A DNA stretch of 32,000 nt from Candidatus Heimdallarchaeota archaeon (GCA_030149205.1 JASBSB010000007.1:270001-302000), one strand, 5' to 3'. Counted from the first letter of the stretch, positions 2-9,617 are shown. Notes: generated by a model not told the origin, from the sequence alone. Numbers and translations are program-made.

Positions 2-700
2 CCTGGATATTCTAATGGTTTGATAACTATAAATCCTTATCACCCCCTCGTGCTTCAAATATTAAACGGAGTAATATCTTACGGTGTTTCAGCTCTAAAA
101 CAAGGTAATGGGAATACTGATGTGTACATTCAAAGCCCACTTGCACCTGTATCTCTTTATCTTTCCTTTGCAGTTTTTATAGCAGTTATTATTTCCCTTC
201 CTGTAACTGCCAAAGAGCTGTATTCTTATATCAGACCTGGATTAACTCAAAAGGAAGACCAAGTCATCAAAAAGGTCGGTTTGGTAGCTCTACTGTTGTT
301 TGTCACAGGTGTAGCTATCTCATTTTATAGCATTGTACCGATTACTATGAGAATACTTGCTGTATCAACAACATTTATTGTCGATGTAAGACCATGGTTT
401 AGTTTGGATTCACTTATCAATATACTTTTGTGGGGGACTTTAGGTGCAGGTTTACTCTATGCGTCTCCTATGATAGTGGTGGCATTGGTACAGCTCAACA
501 TTTTGACCGCAGAACAAGTAGCTGCTAGAAGACGAGAAATGATTTTCATTGTTTTTACTCTTGCAGCAATACTTACACCAGACCCAACACCCGTTAGCAC
601 ACTTATTCTCTCAATACCCATGTTACTGATAATTGAGGGTGTGATTCTTTGGTCTGTGAGTATAGAGCTCAATCGAAATTTGAATAATATTGCCACATAA
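2..700 (+). CDS. tatC: Twin-arginine translocase subunit TatC (5' end runs off the window)
   Basis: The frame is open from position 2, so the TTG at 20 is probably not the real start. Multi-TM protein with TatC motifs 'ELYSYIRPGL', 'RRREMIFIVFTLAAILTPDPT' and 'LSIPMLLIIE'. Confidence 0.92.
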   Translation, partial: PGYSNGLITINPYHPLVLQILNGVISYGVSALKQGNGNTDVYIQSPLAPVSLYLSFAVFIAVIISLPVTAKELYSYIRPGLTQKEDQVIKKVGLVALLLFVTGVAISFYSIVPITMRILAVSTTFIVDVRPWFSLDSLINILLWGTLGAGLLYASPMIVVALVQLNILTAEQVAARRREMIFIVFTLAAILTPDPTPVSTLILSIPMLLIIEGVILWSVSIELNRNLNNIAT

Positions 701-751
701 ATTGTCTGTTAAAATCACTACAGATTTAATCTGATAAATTCTTTAATATTT

Positions 752-2044
752 ATGGTTCAACTTGAATTAATATTTCAAATCTCTTGGAATATTGCGGGGA
801 TACTTTTCCTTCTGCTATACCCTATTGCTCATACCCTATTGGGAAGGGGAAAAATTAAGAGTGTGTTTTTTCACAGTCTATTTTTATTATTCTTAATATT
901 GGCATTGGATTCGGTAATTATTGGATTAAAATTGTACTCGAACACAGTGGTTCCTGGATTAAGTGATATTTTAATTATTATTGCAATCCTTTATATCTTG
1001 AGGTTATATCCTGTTTCAACTTTAATTACTTATTCTCCCAATTTACCAGTTGAGCAGGTTAACAATGAAGTGTTAGATGCAGTTATGAAGGGGGTCAGGG
1101 GTAAAAAATCTCAAGTACCAAACCTTTTTGATGAAGAAATAAATGGATCTTTTACCATAACTACACCCTATAGGCTTTCTTATGAAATTGAAGTTGGAGA
1201 GGGAGATAATGCTTTTTTTATTGTGAGCTCTTCAATTTCAATCGTGGTAAAACTTGTTAATTTACTAATTGTATATTTGGGAACGTATAGTTTAATAAAT
1301 TCAAAAACAATTTTTGTGGTTCCTGCTACTACAACAACCTTAGATATCCCAACAACTATTGTGTTTCTTATTTTTGGGAGTTTAGTTATCATGTATCTTG
1401 AATATACGAGTAGCTTAACCTTAGGGAAGGAACTAGTTCTTTTATATAGACGGTTGTTGCAAAAGCAGGTAAACAGAAAAATGAATTCCTTGGAATCTGA
1501 ATCTGTTGCTGGAGAACTTCCCGAAGAAGAAGATCCCTCAGAATTAGAAAAGGCAAGAGAAAGAGCAAGGAAGATTCTTGAGTCGAGAAAGTTCGATGTT
1601 TTAAGCAAAAAGAGACAACAGTTAAAAGATAAAGTTGACACAATTTTTGAGAAAGATATAGAAACTCAAAGTTTTGATCTTGAGACGATTGAAAGAATCC
1701 GCTTGGTAAATGCCGTAAAAAGAGCAACAACCTCCACCCCCCCTTGGACCAAGGTCTCACTATCTCAAATTGCTGAACTTGTAGATGGCGAAGAAGAAGA
1801 AGTTGAACTTATTATTACCAACCTAAGACAGCAAGGTGAGATTCCTGGAATTTATGATATTTGGAAGAAGATGTATTTCGGGGTGAAAGATGAACAATGG
1901 ATTATTCATCAAACCCTCAATAAGTCAGAAGAACACGGAATGAATGTAAATCATATCATGGTTCATCCCGATGGAAAGACCGAGGTATCATTCAACTCAA
2001 AAAATGATTTAAAAAAGGAAAATGAATTCGAAGAAGAAGGTTAA
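752..2044 (+). CDS. Multi-pass membrane protein with cytoplasmic coiled region and C-terminal PCI-like winged helix
   Basis: 430-aa ORF with about 5 hydrophobic segments in the N-terminal half and a charged helical middle. 'VSLSQIAELVDGEEEEVELIITNLRQQGEIPGIYD' fits the PCI/winged-helix pattern. Confidence 0.75.
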   Translation: MVQLELIFQISWNIAGILFLLLYPIAHTLLGRGKIKSVFFHSLFLLFLILALDSVIIGLKLYSNTVVPGLSDILIIIAILYILRLYPVSTLITYSPNLPVEQVNNEVLDAVMKGVRGKKSQVPNLFDEEINGSFTITTPYRLSYEIEVGEGDNAFFIVSSSISIVVKLVNLLIVYLGTYSLINSKTIFVVPATTTTLDIPTTIVFLIFGSLVIMYLEYTSSLTLGKELVLLYRRLLQKQVNRKMNSLESESVAGELPEEEDPSELEKARERARKILESRKFDVLSKKRQQLKDKVDTIFEKDIETQSFDLETIERIRLVNAVKRATTSTPPWTKVSLSQIAELVDGEEEEVELIITNLRQQGEIPGIYDIWKKMYFGVKDEQWIIHQTLNKSEEHGMNVNHIMVHPDGKTEVSFNSKNDLKKENEFEEEG

Positions 2045-2142
2045 AATAAACAAATAGACTTCAAAAATAATTTGTTCAACCGATGGAATTAAAAAATATG
2101 AAATTTAGTTCCGGTCAGAATCGCTATAAATTAGGTGTTAAA

Positions 2143-3333
2143 ATGCAAAAAAGAAAGTTTATTTACCTTACCTCCTTGTTAGCGTTTCTGATAGTTTCAG
2201 GTGCATATGGTGCAATTAACCACACCACACCCAATATGTCTACAAGTCAAACTGGGACACCAGTAAAACACTATTATGTTTACCAAAAAACCTTTGCAAA
2301 CAATACTTTGGATGGAAAAGTTACCCCTGGTGAATATCCTAATGTTTTCAATGTTTCTGCAGTTGGAGGCTATCAGTTCGCACAAGTCTATATGGTTCAT
2401 GATGCAACAAGATTGAAAGTCGCTGTAGTGGCCAAGCTTGCTGGTTGGGTGGGCTTCGGATTAAGCGAAAATGGAATGATAAATGCAACAATATTTGAAA
2501 CTGGGGTTGTTGGTTCTAATACTTCCAGCCCAGGACTCTTCAAAGGTCTCTTAACCGGAAATGTGTTTCCTGGATTTGTTAGGAGCCTTTCAAACGCAGA
2601 AATCAGAGGTGTTCAGGTGGGGAATAACACAACTATCGAACTTGTAATTCCTCTCAAGTCACCAGATGGTTTTTACAATATGAAGATCAATCAAACTTAT
2701 GGTTTTATTGTAGCTGGCCATAAAACGAGTGATGTGTTGGAATATCACTCCTATCATTCACAAAGGAATCTAAGATTTACTTTATTACCTGCATCACAAC
2801 CGGCTCCTGTTGACGTCAGTTTAACAGGTTTAACTGTAACAAAAGGGCTGAATGGTAGCTATGATTTTCAAGTTAGTATGAACACCCTTACCCAAAATGT
2901 TACAGTTTCATTTGTCGCAAAATCTTTTTATGGTGAATTTTTCATAGGGAGTATTGATTCAAGTGGGGGAACGATTAAATTTGCAGGTAGCATGAACTTT
3001 ACAACTTATAGTCAGGTTAAGGTATATGCAATGACTGACAATCTGGTAGGGTTCAACGCAGCTAAAAGTAACACAGTTGAGATTTCTGGATTGACTCCAC
3101 ACTTTTATGAGATTTATGTTCATCATATTGTGGAGGATCCAAATTGGAATAACACAAAAGAATTTGTCGTTAACCCTAATATGTTTCAAAATTCTGGGCA
3201 CCTCATTAGTGCAGCAATGCTTTGGACCTTTGTGTTAGTTGTTACATTAGTACTTTGGGAGTATGGTGCAGCAGTAATGAAACTAATTTATCTGCACATT
3301 TTAGGAAATGAAGAGGAGTTGAAGAAAGAATGA
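2143..3333 (+). CDS. Exported, C-terminally anchored DOMON-domain protein (predicted Met/His heme b binder)
   Basis: The ATG at 2143 follows an AGGTG SD-like element and opens a Sec-type signal peptide (MQKRKFIYLTSLLAFLIVSGAYGA). DOMON motif 'GWVGFGLSENGM' with a downstream 'YHSYH'. C-terminal TM helix. The stop overlaps the next start (ATGA, 3330-3333). Confidence 0.75.
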   Translation: MQKRKFIYLTSLLAFLIVSGAYGAINHTTPNMSTSQTGTPVKHYYVYQKTFANNTLDGKVTPGEYPNVFNVSAVGGYQFAQVYMVHDATRLKVAVVAKLAGWVGFGLSENGMINATIFETGVVGSNTSSPGLFKGLLTGNVFPGFVRSLSNAEIRGVQVGNNTTIELVIPLKSPDGFYNMKINQTYGFIVAGHKTSDVLEYHSYHSQRNLRFTLLPASQPAPVDVSLTGLTVTKGLNGSYDFQVSMNTLTQNVTVSFVAKSFYGEFFIGSIDSSGGTIKFAGSMNFTTYSQVKVYAMTDNLVGFNAAKSNTVEISGLTPHFYEIYVHHIVEDPNWNNTKEFVVNPNMFQNSGHLISAAMLWTFVLVVTLVLWEYGAAVMKLIYLHILGNEEELKKE

Positions 3334-4313
3334 GTAAGGCAAGTTCATTTGTAAAATGGTCTGAAAACCTGACTGTAAAACGAAGAACGTTTATTAAAGG
3401 TCTTGCGTTTGTGGGGGCATCTGCTTATGCAATTGCACCACTCCCAAGACGAGACGGGTTTATCTTTAAAAACAGATTACCTCAAGGAATTACGGTTGAT
3501 CACTCCCGAGATTATAGCAGACGTTATGATAAATGGAGAATACCAAACACAGTATGGGGAATGGTGATTGACCTGGCAAAATGTGATGGGTGTAATGATT
3601 TGACATCTAAGGGGAACCCTCCTAGATGTACTGCAGCCTGTCAAGAAGGGCATCACGCACCAAGTGATTACAAACAAAATAGTAAATCATACTTTGACAA
3701 TGAACATCAGACTCAAGTTCAATTAAATCAAAGAGTTCATGAATATATCAAGGTATTTAAGGTTCAAGACAATCCATGGTCAAACTCTTACTTCTTCCCA
3801 AGACCATGTCAACAGTGTATCGACCCACCTTGTGTTCATGTTTGTCCAGTTCAGGCAGCTTGGCAAAGAACTGGAGATAGGCTCACATTGGTTGATCAAG
3901 AACGATGTATTGGTTGTCGACTATGTATGGCTGGGTGTCCCTATGAGGTAAGATTTTTCCATTGGGAAGATAACTACAAATTTTATGATAGTAATGGGAA
4001 ACCTTTAGGTCCAGATTCACGAATAGTCAAAGACTTTGAGATGCAAATGCCCTTCGAGATTGTCAAACAAAAAGGAGTAATTGCAAAATGTGACTTCTGT
4101 GGAAACCAATTCTTAGGAAAATTACCACATTGTGTGGCTTCTTGTCACAAGGGTGCTCTATATTTTGGAAATCTCTTGGAGAACTCAGTCACAAACAATA
4201 TGGGTGAAACAATTCTAGTCGACAAAACCATTCAAGAAAGGAAAGGTTTTAGATGGAAAGAAGAAGAAGGAACAAGACCCAGGGTATTTTATCTCCCTGC
4301 AAATACTAAGTAG
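3330..4313 (+). CDS. Tat-exported multi-[4Fe-4S] ferredoxin subunit (NrfC/DsrO/ActB2 family)
   Basis: Twin-arginine motif 'KRRTFIKG'. Cys motifs CDGC-x11-CTAAC, CQQCIDPPCVHVCP, CIGCRLCMAGCPY and CDFC...CVASC. 'WGMVIDLAKC' is typical of this family. Confidence 0.92.
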   Translation: MSKASSFVKWSENLTVKRRTFIKGLAFVGASAYAIAPLPRRDGFIFKNRLPQGITVDHSRDYSRRYDKWRIPNTVWGMVIDLAKCDGCNDLTSKGNPPRCTAACQEGHHAPSDYKQNSKSYFDNEHQTQVQLNQRVHEYIKVFKVQDNPWSNSYFFPRPCQQCIDPPCVHVCPVQAAWQRTGDRLTLVDQERCIGCRLCMAGCPYEVRFFHWEDNYKFYDSNGKPLGPDSRIVKDFEMQMPFEIVKQKGVIAKCDFCGNQFLGKLPHCVASCHKGALYFGNLLENSVTNNMGETILVDKTIQERKGFRWKEEEGTRPRVFYLPANTK

Positions 4314-4321
4314 GTGAAATC

Positions 4322-5794
4322 ATGGCAACAGCAAACGAACATACAGATTTTAATCCAGTAAAAACCAACCTTGAACATCTTTATATCCCAAATGGCGAGG
4401 TAATGGATGAACAAGAGGTAATGAGAAGGAGAAAAATTGTTGAAAAGGCATTTTTAACCATTCGTCCAGCAGAAATACTAGCTATGCTTCCACTTATAGT
4501 CGTTATGTGGGTGGGCTTTGGACATTATGTGGCATTACAGGAGATAGTAGGTCTAAAAGTCACAGCTTTATCTCAAAAAGTATTTTGGGGTATGTATATC
4601 ACAAACTTTGTTTTTTGGATCGGTGTATCGCATGTGGGAATGCTTATATCTGCAGTAATGAGGATATTAAATGCTAAGTTCAGAACTCCAATCACAAGAC
4701 TTGCAGAAGAAGTCACCATTGTATCATTATTAATGGGTGCTGGTTCGGTTCTGATCGATATGGGAAGGTTAGACCGTGCATTACATATTGCGTGGTATGC
4801 AAACATGACTTCCCCCTTAGTTTGGGATGTCATATCAATCAGTTTCTATTTAACTGGTAGTTTAATATTTTTCTACACCCCAATAATTCCGGACTTTGCT
4901 TATTACAGAGATAACCTGAATCCAAAAGTTCATGGTATGAGAATAAAGATCTACAAGATTCTTGCTCTAAATTGGAGAGGAACCCAGGAACAATATGAAA
5001 TTATCGAAGACAAGATCATGTCTAGGTTAAAATGGTTTATTCTTCCAATAGCTGTTTCAGTTCACACAGTTGTTAGTTGGATTTTTGCAGTTATGTGGAG
5101 AGCAGGATGGAATTCCACTATTTTTGGACCATATTTTGTCTCAGGTGCAATCTATTCTGGAACTTCTGCTTTAGTAACCATACTTGCATTGGTAACTTGG
5201 TATTATGGATTTGAAGACTATATCTCCATGACTCATATTAAACTTGTAATTAAACTGTGGGTCACAGTTGATTTTGTTTATATGTACTTTACACTCAATG
5301 AAATCATAGTTCCTGCCTACAAAAGAGAAGGAAGAGAGTTTTCTGTTTTGTATCAAAAATTCTACGGGGATATGGCAACAGTTTACTGGTTTGTTATAAT
5401 TGTTGGTGCTGTCATTCCATTCTTTGTAGGAATTTGGTTATACAATATGAAAGAGAAAAACAAGAACTGGTTCTATCTCATTGCAATCATAACTAGTCTA
5501 TTAAGCAACATTGGTTCTTGGTTCGAAAGATACACAATTGTAGTACCAACACTAAGATCCTTTGTTGTATCTCCCATTGAACCATTGTATGTTTATTTAC
5601 CAATTGCAGGAGAAATCTGGATTACTCTAGCCCAAGTTGCTTTCTTTATCTTCTTCTACTGGTTCCTAAACAAGCTAATTCCTCACATACCCTTATGGGA
5701 GGTCGAACTTGAATGGGAAAAATATGGCTTAGTAAAGGGCGAAACACCAACAAGAAAGCACTTAAATTCAATGGGTTCTGATCTTAAAGAATAA
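4322..5794 (+). CDS. nrfD: NrfD/PsrC-family quinone-reactive membrane subunit, ActC/QrcD-like
   Basis: About 10 TM segments. Motifs 'WGMYITNFVFWIGVSHVG', 'RTPITRLAE', 'DMGR', 'HTVVSWIFA', 'WNSTIFGPYFVSGAIYSG' and 'WFERYTIVV'. GGTGA SD-like element just upstream of the ATG. Confidence 0.92.
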   Translation: MATANEHTDFNPVKTNLEHLYIPNGEVMDEQEVMRRRKIVEKAFLTIRPAEILAMLPLIVVMWVGFGHYVALQEIVGLKVTALSQKVFWGMYITNFVFWIGVSHVGMLISAVMRILNAKFRTPITRLAEEVTIVSLLMGAGSVLIDMGRLDRALHIAWYANMTSPLVWDVISISFYLTGSLIFFYTPIIPDFAYYRDNLNPKVHGMRIKIYKILALNWRGTQEQYEIIEDKIMSRLKWFILPIAVSVHTVVSWIFAVMWRAGWNSTIFGPYFVSGAIYSGTSALVTILALVTWYYGFEDYISMTHIKLVIKLWVTVDFVYMYFTLNEIIVPAYKREGREFSVLYQKFYGDMATVYWFVIIVGAVIPFFVGIWLYNMKEKNKNWFYLIAIITSLLSNIGSWFERYTIVVPTLRSFVVSPIEPLYVYLPIAGEIWITLAQVAFFIFFYWFLNKLIPHIPLWEVELEWEKYGLVKGETPTRKHLNSMGSDLKE

Positions 5795-7277: not shown

Positions 7278-9617
7278 TCAATCATTTTTCATTTTTTTCA
7301 AGGGTTGGTGGTGGACAATTACCGCACTATCAATATTTTTCATTATTCTATAAGCTAAGTTAGTTCTGATTCTATTCCAAAGTCCTTTATCTTTTGTATG
7401 TCCAATCAACACAGCATCTGGTTCACGTGCCACAGTAGCCTGTTTCAGAGCCTTTACAAAATTATGTCCGTATAAAAGGACTGGAATGACATTCATTCCC
7501 AATCGGTTGAATATATCTCTAGAGTATTCCTCAAACCTTTCTTTACTTCTAATTAATTCATCAAAGTTTGCAGCATCTTCTAAAGAGATGGTTTGGGGAA
7601 TCTCGATTATATGATATGCAAAGATTTTACTCTCTTCACCAACCGAGGATATTAATTTTGCCCATCTTGCCAAATAAAAATCCCTCTCAGATCCATCTAA
7701 GAGAACAAATAGATCATTGATATCTTTCCTTTTCACACCATATTCGGGAGGATGAACCTGCAATATTGGTGTAGAGATTGTATCAACTATCTCTTTTGAA
7801 ACACTTCCAGCAGAAAGCCGATCAATAAGTGATTTTTTTCTTTTAGAGGCTAATGTAACAAGTTGATATTCTCCGTTGTTTATTGTTTGGATAATTGTTT
7901 CTGCAATATCACCGCTGTCAACTCGAATTAGATTATATTTAACACCATAATCTCTAAAGAATTTGAATGCGTCTTCTAGGTCTCTCTCTGGGCCAACGTG
8001 GATAATGTCAACTTCAACATTGTATTTCTTTGCAATTAAAGCACTTATCTCCCAATTTTTAGTCTCAAATTGGTCTCCAGAAATAGCCACAAGCATTCTG
8101 TTTAATTCAACAAAATATTCATCAACTGTGATGTCTGTTCCACTGAACTCTTGAATCAATTCCTTACCAAGTGGTTCTAAATCGTATTTCTTGAGATGAT
8201 CTTCATCTGTTTCCTTTGATTTTCGATTATAGTAATAATTCAATCCAAACGAAACTGTAAGAAATATGGTTAATGTTATCAAAGTAACCTGGGAATGAGC
8301 GATATTTGCTCCAATGAAAACGAATACCAAGATGAGATTAATTAAAATTAATATTGCACCTGCTTTTGCAAGATAATTTTTCTCTTTAGGGTAGAGTTTT
8401 ACAGCAGCAACATTTACAATAAAAAAGATCCCTAAAAATATAACTGATCCAACCTCAGCAATCTCTTCAGCATTCCCAAAAAAGGTGAATATCCAACTAA
8501 ATAGACTTGTAGCAATAATCGCTAAGTAGGGGACCTTACTCTTCTTACTTAGTTTTGCTAATGAGGTTGGAAATGACTTGTAGTCAGCAAGCACATATGC
8601 TAACCTTGAAGAACCTAAAAGTGTTGCATTAATGGCAGAAGTGGTACTTGCAGCAGCCCCCGCTGCAACCAAAATGACTGCCCAATACCCCAAAAATTCA
8701 ACGGCTTGAAGTAGAGCTGCCTCATTAATTTTAGTCTTATGTGGATCGAGTAAACTGAAGGTTGCAAGTGTAACCAGAACATAAGTTATAGTTACTAGAA
8801 TTACTGAAATAATCATACCAAGTTTTACATCACGAGTGGGATTTTTTAGTTCCTCAACAGTGTTAGCAATTACTTGAAACCCTTCATAACTCACAAATAT
8901 AATGGCTCCTCCCATGATCATACTCCCTATTCCGCCAAATAATCCAAAATTTTCACCACTAGTTGGATGTAATGGGTTCACATCCTTGAAAAAGGGTGTG
9001 TAAGCAGAAGGATTGAATACTGAGATACCTACAGCAGCTATAAAAAATAGGACAAATAATTTGAATAGGACTATAACGTTTTGGACGACCCCAGTCTCTT
9101 TAACTCCCCTTAAATTTATTAGCATAAATGTAAAAATAGAGATAAATGCAAACACCTTTCTGCCAGTTATATGTGTGTTAAATCCACCAATAATTAGACC
9201 AGAAAACCCGAGTTCAAAAAAATGTATGTTTGTAAGTTGAAATATCAACTCACTTGTATATAACCCAAAGGTGAAGGCATACAGGGCAATTGTAACAGAG
9301 TACCCTAACCAAAGCATAACTCCAACAACATTTCCTATTGATTTATTTTCAAACCCTTTCCTAAGAATAACAAATTCTCCACCAGCAGATGGGTATTTTG
9401 CCACTAACTTGTAATAGGAAATAGCGGTAAGAAACACAATTATACCACCCATCAAAAAACTGACCATAGCAGAAGGACCGGCAATATTTGCCAATTTTCC
9501 AAGAACTGTAAAAATTCCTCCACCAATCATTGCCCCCACTGCAATTGAAACCGCTTCAACAAGCCCTAGTTCCTTTGCAAACTCAGTTTCCCCCAAAATT
9601 GAACTTTCATGACTCAT
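7278..9617 (-). CDS. APC-family amino acid permease fused to two universal stress protein (USP)-like domains
   Basis: APC motifs 'GAMIGGGIF', 'AGP', 'AGGE', 'FVSYEGFQ' and 'SSRLAYVLA'. The C-terminal ~280 aa contain two USP-like modules ('RMLVAISG...LVTLAS' and 'LFVLLDGS...DAVLIGH...SAVIVH'). Confidence 0.9.
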   Translation of the reverse strand: MSHESSILGETEFAKELGLVEAVSIAVGAMIGGGIFTVLGKLANIAGPSAMVSFLMGGIIVFLTAISYYKLVAKYPSAGGEFVILRKGFENKSIGNVVGVMLWLGYSVTIALYAFTFGLYTSELIFQLTNIHFFELGFSGLIIGGFNTHITGRKVFAFISIFTFMLINLRGVKETGVVQNVIVLFKLFVLFFIAAVGISVFNPSAYTPFFKDVNPLHPTSGENFGLFGGIGSMIMGGAIIFVSYEGFQVIANTVEELKNPTRDVKLGMIISVILVTITYVLVTLATFSLLDPHKTKINEAALLQAVEFLGYWAVILVAAGAAASTTSAINATLLGSSRLAYVLADYKSFPTSLAKLSKKSKVPYLAIIATSLFSWIFTFFGNAEEIAEVGSVIFLGIFFIVNVAAVKLYPKEKNYLAKAGAILILINLILVFVFIGANIAHSQVTLITLTIFLTVSFGLNYYYNRKSKETDEDHLKKYDLEPLGKELIQEFSGTDITVDEYFVELNRMLVAISGDQFETKNWEISALIAKKYNVEVDIIHVGPERDLEDAFKFFRDYGVKYNLIRVDSGDIAETIIQTINNGEYQLVTLASKRKKSLIDRLSAGSVSKEIVDTISTPILQVHPPEYGVKRKDINDLFVLLDGSERDFYLARWAKLISSVGEESKIFAYHIIEIPQTISLEDAANFDELIRSKERFEEYSRDIFNRLGMNVIPVLLYGHNFVKALKQATVAREPDAVLIGHTKDKGLWNRIRTNLAYRIMKNIDSAVIVHHQPLKKMKND

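Follow-up and report, generated by a model that had tools for sequence, protein, structure and literature searches.

A DOMON-NrfC-NrfD operon of a Heimdall-group archaeon as a candidate link between the quinone pool and copper oxidases

Related complexes and the operon

Membrane complexes built on an NrfC-type ferredoxin and the membrane protein NrfD include alternative complex III (ACIII; ActABCDEF; structures 6f0k, 6btm, 6lod and 8k9e), Qrc (QrcABCD) and DsrMKJOP, and it is with these in particular that we compare an operon of a Candidatus Heimdallarchaeota archaeon (GCA_030149205.1, JASBSB010000007.1:270001-302000). The stretch of 32,000 nucleotides that was analysed, called the window below, carries at positions 2-5794, all on the plus strand, genes for TatC, a membrane protein, an exported DOMON protein, a ferredoxin with a twin-arginine (Tat) signal and an NrfD. 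The last three, referred to as the trio, are the main subject here. In Qrc and DsrMKJOP, as proposed for the trio, the NrfCD pair works with electron carriers instead of a catalytic molybdoenzyme (PMC8076601). None of the NrfD-containing complexes catalogued in 2021 has a DOMON or immunoglobulin (Ig)-like subunit (PMC8076601), and targeted full-text literature searches found no published description of a DOMON-NrfC-NrfD system.

Oxygen respiration by the closest archaeal kin of eukaryotes is actively debated. Heimdallarchaeia that carry haem-copper oxidases (Cox) have been described as being without complex III, cytochrome c and blue copper carriers, with no known route to Cox (preprint 10.1101/2025.02.26.640444). 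It is, in our judgement, fairly probable that the trio is a quinol:haem-b-DOMON oxidoreductase which substitutes for complex III and passes electrons to CuA-containing oxidases and a NirK-like nitrite reductase. In this organism it is the best candidate for a link between the quinone pool and the copper oxidases, and it is best read as a complex that is related to ACIII yet distinct from it. The operon is a concrete candidate for the missing step and makes the "missing complex III" of Heimdall-group archaea directly testable.

The likeness to ACIII lies in the core subunits. The NrfD of the trio is full-length and of ActC type, with the half-channel residues largely kept, its ferredoxin is the counterpart of the B2 part of ActB and has a Tat export signal, and the proposed function, quinol oxidation with delivery to oxidases at the outer face, is the same. 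Unlike ACIII, the trio lacks the pseudo-molybdopterin B1 domain of ActB, the pentahaem ActA, the monohaem ActE and the second NrfD, ActF. A putative haem-b subunit consisting of DOMON, Ig and anchor parts stands where ACIII has cytochromes c, and the quinol-site residues His139 and Asp253 are replaced in NrfD. A reading of the operon made earlier from the sequence alone (the sequence-only reading) had proposed a minimal ACIII-like complex, and this gains support from the ActC-like NrfD and from a DOMON fold with a Met/His pair as putative haem ligands.

Qrc and DsrMKJOP provide the best NCBIfam names for the core subunits (DsrO 131, QrcC 97 and DsrP 73 bits), but these scores fall far under the respective cut-offs of 200, 400 and 350. 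Moreover, the operon has no multihaem QrcA or DsrJ, no QrcB, no DsrMK and no HdrD-like gene, and its NrfD is nearer to ActC. For the DOMON protein the closest relatives are of another kind. The gamma subunits EbdC (2ivf_C) and NxrC (7b04_C) share its DOMON/EB_dh beta-sandwich and are b-haem proteins that dock on a homologous four-cluster ferredoxin. They belong to enzymes with a molybdenum (Mo) alpha subunit and a NarH-type beta subunit, in which the electron wire terminates at the gamma subunit, whereas the trio has no alpha subunit, its ferredoxin is of NrfC type and would sit on NrfD, and its conserved pair is Met/His where we take the EbdC haem ligands to be Met/Lys. The cytochrome domains of cellobiose dehydrogenase (CDH) and pyranose dehydrogenase (1d7c, 4qi3 and 6jt6) also have the DOMON fold, with an exposed b haem as a mobile or outward head, but they belong to flavo- or quinoproteins that fungi secrete and that form no membrane complex, and the sequence match to them is non-significant (E 0.3).

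A parallel in concept is provided by CbsAB-SoxLN of Sulfolobus, a quinol-oxidising archaeal complex free of cytochrome c, in which cytochrome b558/566 (CbsA), a heavily glycosylated, exported and anchored monohaem b protein, is taken to replace cytochrome c1. Its core is Rieske/cytochrome b, whereas that of the trio is NrfCD, and the Sulfolobus acidocaldarius genome, used as a control, has no match to the Pfam DOMON family (PF03351). NosGH was also considered as a precedent for NrfCD and dropped, since we take it to be NapGH-like.

The three subunits and their conservation

The genes for the DOMON protein (2083..3333, 416 amino acids), the ferredoxin (3330..4313, 327 amino acids) and NrfD (4322..5794, 490 amino acids) are closely packed. 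The first two overlap by ATGA at 3330-3333, and 8 bp (4314-4321) separate the ferredoxin gene from that of NrfD, with GGTGA immediately 5' of the NrfD ATG. The operon ends at 5794 and convergent genes follow. Overlap and spacing, both read directly in the sequence, and the open reading frame (ORF) calls that place all five genes on one strand agree with the sequence-only reading. That reading had also remarked on the absence from the cluster of a molybdopterin enzyme, of a multihaem c subunit and of CxxCH motifs; this is borne out by the sequence and by family scans, with a CxxCH count of zero in each of the five operon genes.

The DOMON protein carries an N-terminal signal/anchor sequence, two beta domains and a C-terminal membrane helix, and its start, judged from orthologues, is probably M21 at 2143. 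It contains 12 N-x-S/T sequons, against 0-2 in the products of adjoining genes. In an AlphaFold2 (AF2) model with a pLDDT of 75, residues 62-236 (2266..2790) form a domain of DOMON/EB_dh fold, which VIA-align superimposes on EbdC with Z 14.3 (rmsd 3.0, 165 residues aligned), on NxrC with Z 12.8, on the DOMON domain of dopamine beta-hydroxylase with Z 11.8, and on the haem-b cytochrome domains of CDH (1d7c, Z 11.1) and pyranose dehydrogenase with Z 10.5-11.1. These matches were obtained only with VIA-align in its wide mode; Foldseek, run with the whole two-domain model, gave Ig-type two-domain matches only, with poor TM-scores.

Met132 (2476-2478) and His222 (2746-2748) of this domain are proposed, from their conservation and placement, as the axial haem-b ligands. 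Both are invariant in 15 family members and are also kept in a homologue from Thermofilaceae, in paralogues linked to nar genes and in seven of nine distant representatives. The family profile places Met132 on Met65 of CDH, an axial haem ligand there; the match is weak and non-significant (E 0.3), and CDH-type cytochrome domains are the profile's sole matches among PDB sequences.

An Ig/FN3-like domain follows (residues 243-338, 2809..3096; fold matches with Z 9-10), and then a C-terminal transmembrane anchor at residues ~371-395 (3193..3267), where residues 371-389 are hydrophobic and the model has a helix from 367 to 415. The anchor helix carries Glu393 in the sequence LWEYG and, as speculation, this residue might be the counterpart of the membrane Glu of ActD. 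A W-x-T-Y motif in the anchor helix was tried as a mark of the clade and rejected: it occurs in many bacterial and thaumarchaeal members, and the Heimdall proteins have W-E-Y in another register.

The ferredoxin is of the NrfC/ActB2/DsrO type (Fer4_11, 82.5 bits), with DsrO, QrcC and NrfC as its best NCBIfam and Pfam names. Its four Cys4 motifs, CxxCx11CxxxC, CxxCx4CxxxCP, CxxCxxCxxxCP and CxxCx10CxxxC, extend from C85 to C272 (3582-4145) and contain 16 Cys in all. These, and R19 in the twin-arginine signal KRRTFIK (3378-3398), are invariant in seven NrfC orthologues. The longest alignment with a PDB sequence is confined to the B2 part of ActB (residues 659-943 of ActB in 6btm).

Because the window begins inside tatC, only the 3' part of this gene, 232 codons, lies within it (2..700; PF00902, 121-125 bits). 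The complete gene encodes 339 amino acids, starts 319 bases upstream of the window and is preceded by tatA (PF02416). This tatC (G000:C8:269921-270619) is the single TatC match in the genome and, since it opens the operon together with tatA, the ferredoxin may be the main Tat client of this archaeon. A regular-expression scan for further twin-arginine substrates returned mostly transporters; it was crude and missed NrfC itself.

NrfD matches PF03916 with 84.5 bits (cut-off 25.8), has no Cys, and shows at least eight hydrophobic segments in a crude scan. Its residues 74-463 align with ActC of 8k9e, 6btm, 6f0k and 6lod (E 7e-48 to 1e-44), and the alignment runs end to end, taking in the two extra helices (10 transmembrane helices) that characterise the ActC type. 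When mapped on the residues listed for Rhodothermus marinus ActC (PMC5928083), NrfD keeps 13 of 14 in the putative cytoplasmic proton half-channel and four of the five listed for the periplasmic one (17 of 19 overall), and W82, I86, F89, L166 and D169 of the ActC quinol pocket are kept at the putative quinol site. Its closest named homologues are from Heimdall-group metagenome-assembled genomes (Kariarchaeaceae, Heimdallarchaeota LC_2 and LC_3, and Hodarchaeales).

The gene order TatC-membrane protein-DOMON-NrfC-NrfD is found in four further genomes from two genera (loci L023, L024, L026 and L030, the last on a contig that ends after DOMON). A further three loci have the shorter order DOMON-NrfC-NrfD: L025, L031 and L027, of which L027 comes from a different family of the phylum. 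Across the seven related loci, identities are 39-72% for NrfC and NrfD and 24-36% for the DOMON protein, a low value as expected for a surface protein. A contig from Thermofilaceae has the order NrfC-NrfD-DOMON. Scanning metagenomes with the NrfC alignment yielded relatives that are 31-42% identical, one with a DOMON neighbour, and a metagenome contig carries DOMON-Ig, NrfC and NrfD. The recurrence of the operon is beyond chance, and the neighbourhood conservation that the sequence-only reading had suggested examining is thus present in the Heimdall group, in one Thermofilaceae contig and in one metagenome contig.

A Mo-free NrfCD clade with interchangeable heads

NrfDs from 80 genome loci were combined with the Heimdall copies, and the resulting tree, with 82 sequences, splits into two clades with 99% local support. 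The larger, with 50 sequences, has as neighbours Mo-bisPGD enzymes of ~800 amino acids and c7-type and tetrahaem cytochromes, four of these neighbours having been checked by Pfam. The other 32 sequences comprise the Heimdall copies and NrfDs from Nitrososphaerota, Thermoplasmata, Thermofilaceae, Bathyarchaeia, Chloroflexota, Bacteroidota, Verrucomicrobiota and Planctomycetota; here the NrfCs are longer and there are almost no Mo or multihaem neighbours.

A hidden Markov model (HMM) built only from the Ig domains of the Heimdall DOMON proteins matches, in 15 of the 25 non-Heimdall loci of the Mo-free clade, either the gene that follows NrfD or the C-terminal extension of a long NrfD, and gave no match at E<1e-3 in loci of the Mo/multihaem clade. 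There were 21 further matches among metagenome loci, and fusions of NrfD with Big_1 are present in the protein database. By these sequence matches, the Ig domain marks out the Mo-free NrfCD clade as its conserved signature.

What precedes the Ig domain and anchor varies. A DOMON head is found in the Heimdall loci and in L046 and L139, a cupredoxin-like head with the pattern H...C-x3-6-C-x2-H in L034, L035 and L040, and in L088 with Gly-Met replacing the last His, and a monohaem cytochrome c head in L040 and L071. In L083 the Ig domain and anchor have no head and cytochrome c genes follow, while in L058, from Bacteroidota, two Ig domains are followed by an EB_dh haem protein. Given these swapped heads on a common Ig domain and anchor, the trio would therefore be one version of a modular three-subunit complex, and carriers of the types found as heads, DOMON, cupredoxin-like and cytochrome c, are those that supply oxidases and copper reductases with electrons.

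The wider proposal, that the trio is both the proton-motive functional "complex III" of aerobic Heimdall-group archaea and a member of a widespread, undescribed family of NrfC, ActC-type NrfD and Ig-anchor proteins with heads swapped across Archaea and Bacteria, is put forward tentatively, and taken as a whole we lean slightly against it. A Mo-free branch of NrfCD/ACIII with an Ig-anchor subunit and interchangeable heads is absent from the 2021 catalogue of NrfD complexes (PMC8076601), and automatic labels such as "polysulfide reductase" or "molybdoenzyme anchor" on members of this branch mislead metabolic reconstructions.

Two groups of these loci merit a separate description. The cupredoxin-like third subunits (L034:11252-12398, L035:11227-12252, L088:3301-4302 and L040:7487-8815) belong to thaumarchaeal, bathyarchaeal and Chloroflexota clusters; their His/Cys pattern recalls a CuA-type site, and their Pfam Cupredoxin_1 matches are marginal (E ~0.02). 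In the Bacteroidota cluster L058:4482-11683, genes for a histidine kinase-like protein and a response regulator, both assigned by reading their sequences, come first. After them are genes for NrfC, NrfD, the anchor protein with two Ig domains, an EB_dh haem protein of 450 amino acids, a membrane beta-barrel (DUF5777) and a pair of monohaem cytochromes c, a set that resembles a conduit towards the outer membrane.

Partners in the genome, rival readings and neighbouring genes

The assembly (3.3 Mb, 12 contigs) is 93.5% complete and has no match to the molybdopterin enzyme family PF00384, no true NiFe hydrogenase, no CcmF/ResC for cytochrome c maturation, no ORF with two or more CxxCH motifs and no nar genes. 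The operon NrfD is its only PF03916 match, so that there is no second NrfD of ActF type. A molybdoenzyme or multihaem partner encoded upstream of tatC or elsewhere, which the sequence-only reading had named as a result that would tell against it, was searched for in the genome and none was found.

On the acceptor side, the genome encodes three haem-copper oxidases, and all three subunits II carry the full CuA motif CxExCxxxHxxM with no fused cytochrome c. CuA is a sign of an oxidase that is fed by a protein donor at the outer face. A NirK-like copper nitrite reductase scores 284 bits with TIGR02376, against a cut-off of 296, with near-full coverage of the profile. There are also three small exported cupredoxins, which contrasts with the reported absence of blue copper carriers (preprint 10.1101/2025.02.26.640444), and a short DOMON paralogue of 248 amino acids (L029:6079-8699; G000:C4, ~306-309 kb; PF03351, 40 bits). 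The latter is divergent to genes of ETF:quinone oxidoreductase type, a FixC-like one with an ETFQO_UQ-bd domain and one for a FixX-like ferredoxin. Since the genome encodes CuA oxidases and a NirK-like protein but lacks cytochrome c, a quinol:periplasmic-carrier oxidoreductase is required, and the operon is its only candidate of known type for this activity.

The main oxidase operon (L120:4683-9512, G000:C2) encodes a membrane protein of 314 amino acids and six helices that was taken as haem O synthase, a CoxII that has CuA, a CoxI and another two membrane proteins; a gene for a protein with 580 amino acids, 12 helices and zinc ribbons follows. The remaining two oxidases are bare CoxII-CoxI pairs, and the NirK-like gene (L214:919-2292; G000:C2:43222-44595) has an N-terminal extension of ~160 residues. 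Other DOMON proteins are also found in this genome and in its relatives. In G015, of the same genus (L210:4676-14240), and in G232 (L211:4272-11620), narGHJI-narK is flanked by short exported DOMON paralogues with an anchor that keep the Met/His pair and may be carriers for nitrite reduction; the nitrate reductase is of cytoplasm-facing type, with no Tat signal on NarG and with a separate NarI (PF02665). Loci L126 and L127 (G000:C9:46126-52427) contain DOMON matches of 70 and 68 bits in frames of 954 and 920 amino acids that lie 6 kb apart, and the wider family includes giant multi-DOMON proteins with up to 12 repeats in 2,531 amino acids.

On the reading that we favour, the three translationally coupled genes would yield a three-subunit membrane complex that connects the quinone pool with a haem b outside the membrane. 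NrfD, of the cofactor-free ActC type, would bind and oxidise quinol at the outer face and may also conduct protons. NrfC would fold with its four iron-sulfur clusters in the cytoplasm, be exported by the adjacent TatAC, and sit on NrfD, wiring electrons outward. The DOMON protein, probably Sec-exported, N-glycosylated and tethered by its C-terminal helix, would dock via its Ig-like domain and receive electrons on a Met/His-ligated haem b. The onward path would most likely lead to the CuA sites of the three oxidases and to the NirK-like reductase, either directly from the DOMON protein or via its short paralogue or the small cupredoxins. Such a complex would do the job of complex III or ACIII in an archaeon without cytochrome c. 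The outside partner had previously been left as an unknown surface donor or acceptor; we keep the acceptor half of that proposal and extend it to these enzymes, as the most plausible ones.

Several observations weigh against this reading. An A-type oxidase from Hodarchaeales is reported to oxidise ubiquinol directly in E. coli membranes, with its CuA ligands conserved (preprint 10.1101/2025.11.07.685452), and direct oxidation would make a substitute for complex III unnecessary for that enzyme. The window DOMON protein scores 19.3 bits with PF03351, under the cut-off of 32.7, which is passed by its paralogue in the same genome (40.1 bits) and by the Thermofilaceae homologue (59.4 bits). Two of the three charged residues of the ActC quinol site are changed in NrfD, H139 to D146 and D253 to I254, the new Asp146 being invariant in 16 relatives. 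In a sample of 301 genomes of the phylum, COX1 occurs in 10 of 11 genomes with this NrfD and in 14 of the 290 without, but this co-occurrence provides weak support as the genomes are close kin, mostly from one family. Moreover, genome G025 (91% complete) has two DOMON-NrfCD loci and no COX1, and cox genes were found within 7-10 kb at none of 160 NrfCD loci, bar one partial match in the other clade. An alternative route could be provided by a single cytochrome b (358 amino acids, seven helices) that has no adjoining Rieske gene and lies 2.2 kb past the window end (L119:4230-6126; G000:C8:304230-306126), after a 283-aa exported protein without a family. Rieske matches in the genome are limited to a 102-aa protein in a seemingly Suf-type context and another elsewhere in a long ORF. 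Heimdallarchaeia have been reported to carry a "partial complex III of unknown function", and a cytochrome b with no Rieske gene beside it is of this type. Finally, the conserved 430-aa membrane protein encoded between tatC and DOMON has a role that our reading does not explain, and this is a weak point.

The same complex might have another destination, with the surface haem b passing electrons not to the oxidases but to acceptors outside the cell or on its surface, for example Fe(III), humic quinones or secreted copper enzymes. We regard this as unlikely, although the two loci of the oxidase-free G025 and the lack of cox genes beside any of the fetched loci of the clade would suit it. So would the long, tethered and sequon-rich DOMON protein, its matches to the CDH and pyranose dehydrogenase domains (Z 10.5-11.1), of which that of CDH likewise passes electrons outward, and the Bacteroidota kin, whose additional EB_dh haem protein and DUF5777 beta-barrel look like an outward conduit. 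Against this, the obvious unmet need in the genome is for a donor to three CuA oxidases and NirK, the swapped heads of cupredoxin-like and monohaem cytochrome c type typically serve periplasmic respiratory enzymes, and the operon shows neither an outer conduit nor genes known from metal reduction. Nor does the sequence itself fix a direction of flow. Known NrfCD modules run both ways, Qrc being one that reduces menaquinone (PMC8076601), and with QrcC and DsrO among the best NCBIfam names of the ferredoxin, the trio might be a Qrc-like quinone reductase in which an outside donor feeds the DOMON haem, then NrfC and finally quinone at NrfD. The nearest NrfD structures are those of the quinol-oxidising ACIII, and no periplasmic dehydrogenase, hydrogenase or formate dehydrogenase was seen in the operon or found in the genome. 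The midpoint potentials of b haems in DOMON/EB_dh proteins are positive and exceed those of menaquinone-type pools; transfer from quinol to haem would accordingly be downhill, and reverse flow appears quite unlikely.

The two remaining explanations would remove the function of the trio as a complex in its own right. In one of them, NrfCD merely anchors and wires a catalytic subunit, for instance a molybdoenzyme, whose gene lies elsewhere or in the 6.5% of the genome that is not assembled, and the DOMON protein is an accessory gamma-type subunit like those of ethylbenzene dehydrogenase and Nxr. Relatives of the same genus and family do carry Mo-bisPGD genes, short DOMON paralogues flank narGHJI-narK in G015 and G232, and the folds matched best are those of gamma subunits from type II Mo enzymes. 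This is nevertheless highly improbable. The genome has no PF00384 candidate, NarGHI of the relatives has no Tat signal on NarG and its own NarI anchor, and the relatives' other Mo genes look cytoplasmic, that of G178 adjoining a NuoF-like gene as read from the sequence. In addition, no Mo gene adjoins NrfCD in any Heimdall locus examined and the whole clade is alike in this, while the sister clade has such genes. The least probable explanation of all is that the genes are neighbours whose products share no complex, the DOMON protein being an unrelated surface protein and NrfCD a remnant. It draws on the fast evolution of the DOMON and membrane proteins (24-36% identity in the family), and is opposed by the 4-bp start/stop overlap and 8-bp spacing, by a gene order kept across genera and in Thermoproteota, by cofactor ligands that are invariant in all three proteins, and by the fusion of the Ig module to NrfD in some lineages.

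The 430-aa protein (752..2044) is an ORF call with no family in Pfam, NCBIfam or Atlas, and its fold matches are only to generic helical bundles (Z <=8.8). About five hydrophobic helices are combined with a small insert of beta structure, with long coiled helices on the cytoplasmic side and, at the C-terminus, with a domain resembling a winged helix; in the AF2 model (pLDDT 70) residues 310-392 weakly resemble winged-helix proteins (Z ~7). Orthologues lie between tatC and DOMON in L023, L024, L026 and L030, from the two genera g1 and g2, and a STPPW...GIYDIW motif is invariant in five orthologues. The protein could be an assembly factor or a regulator.

Upstream of the window, HSP20 and CDC48 genes lie before tatA and are divergent. 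Downstream of the operon, the window encodes on the minus strand (7278-9617) a 779-aa APC amino-acid permease fused to a C-terminal universal stress protein domain, and it also holds genes for a Ras-family GTPase, a bactofilin and an unsplit RpoB.

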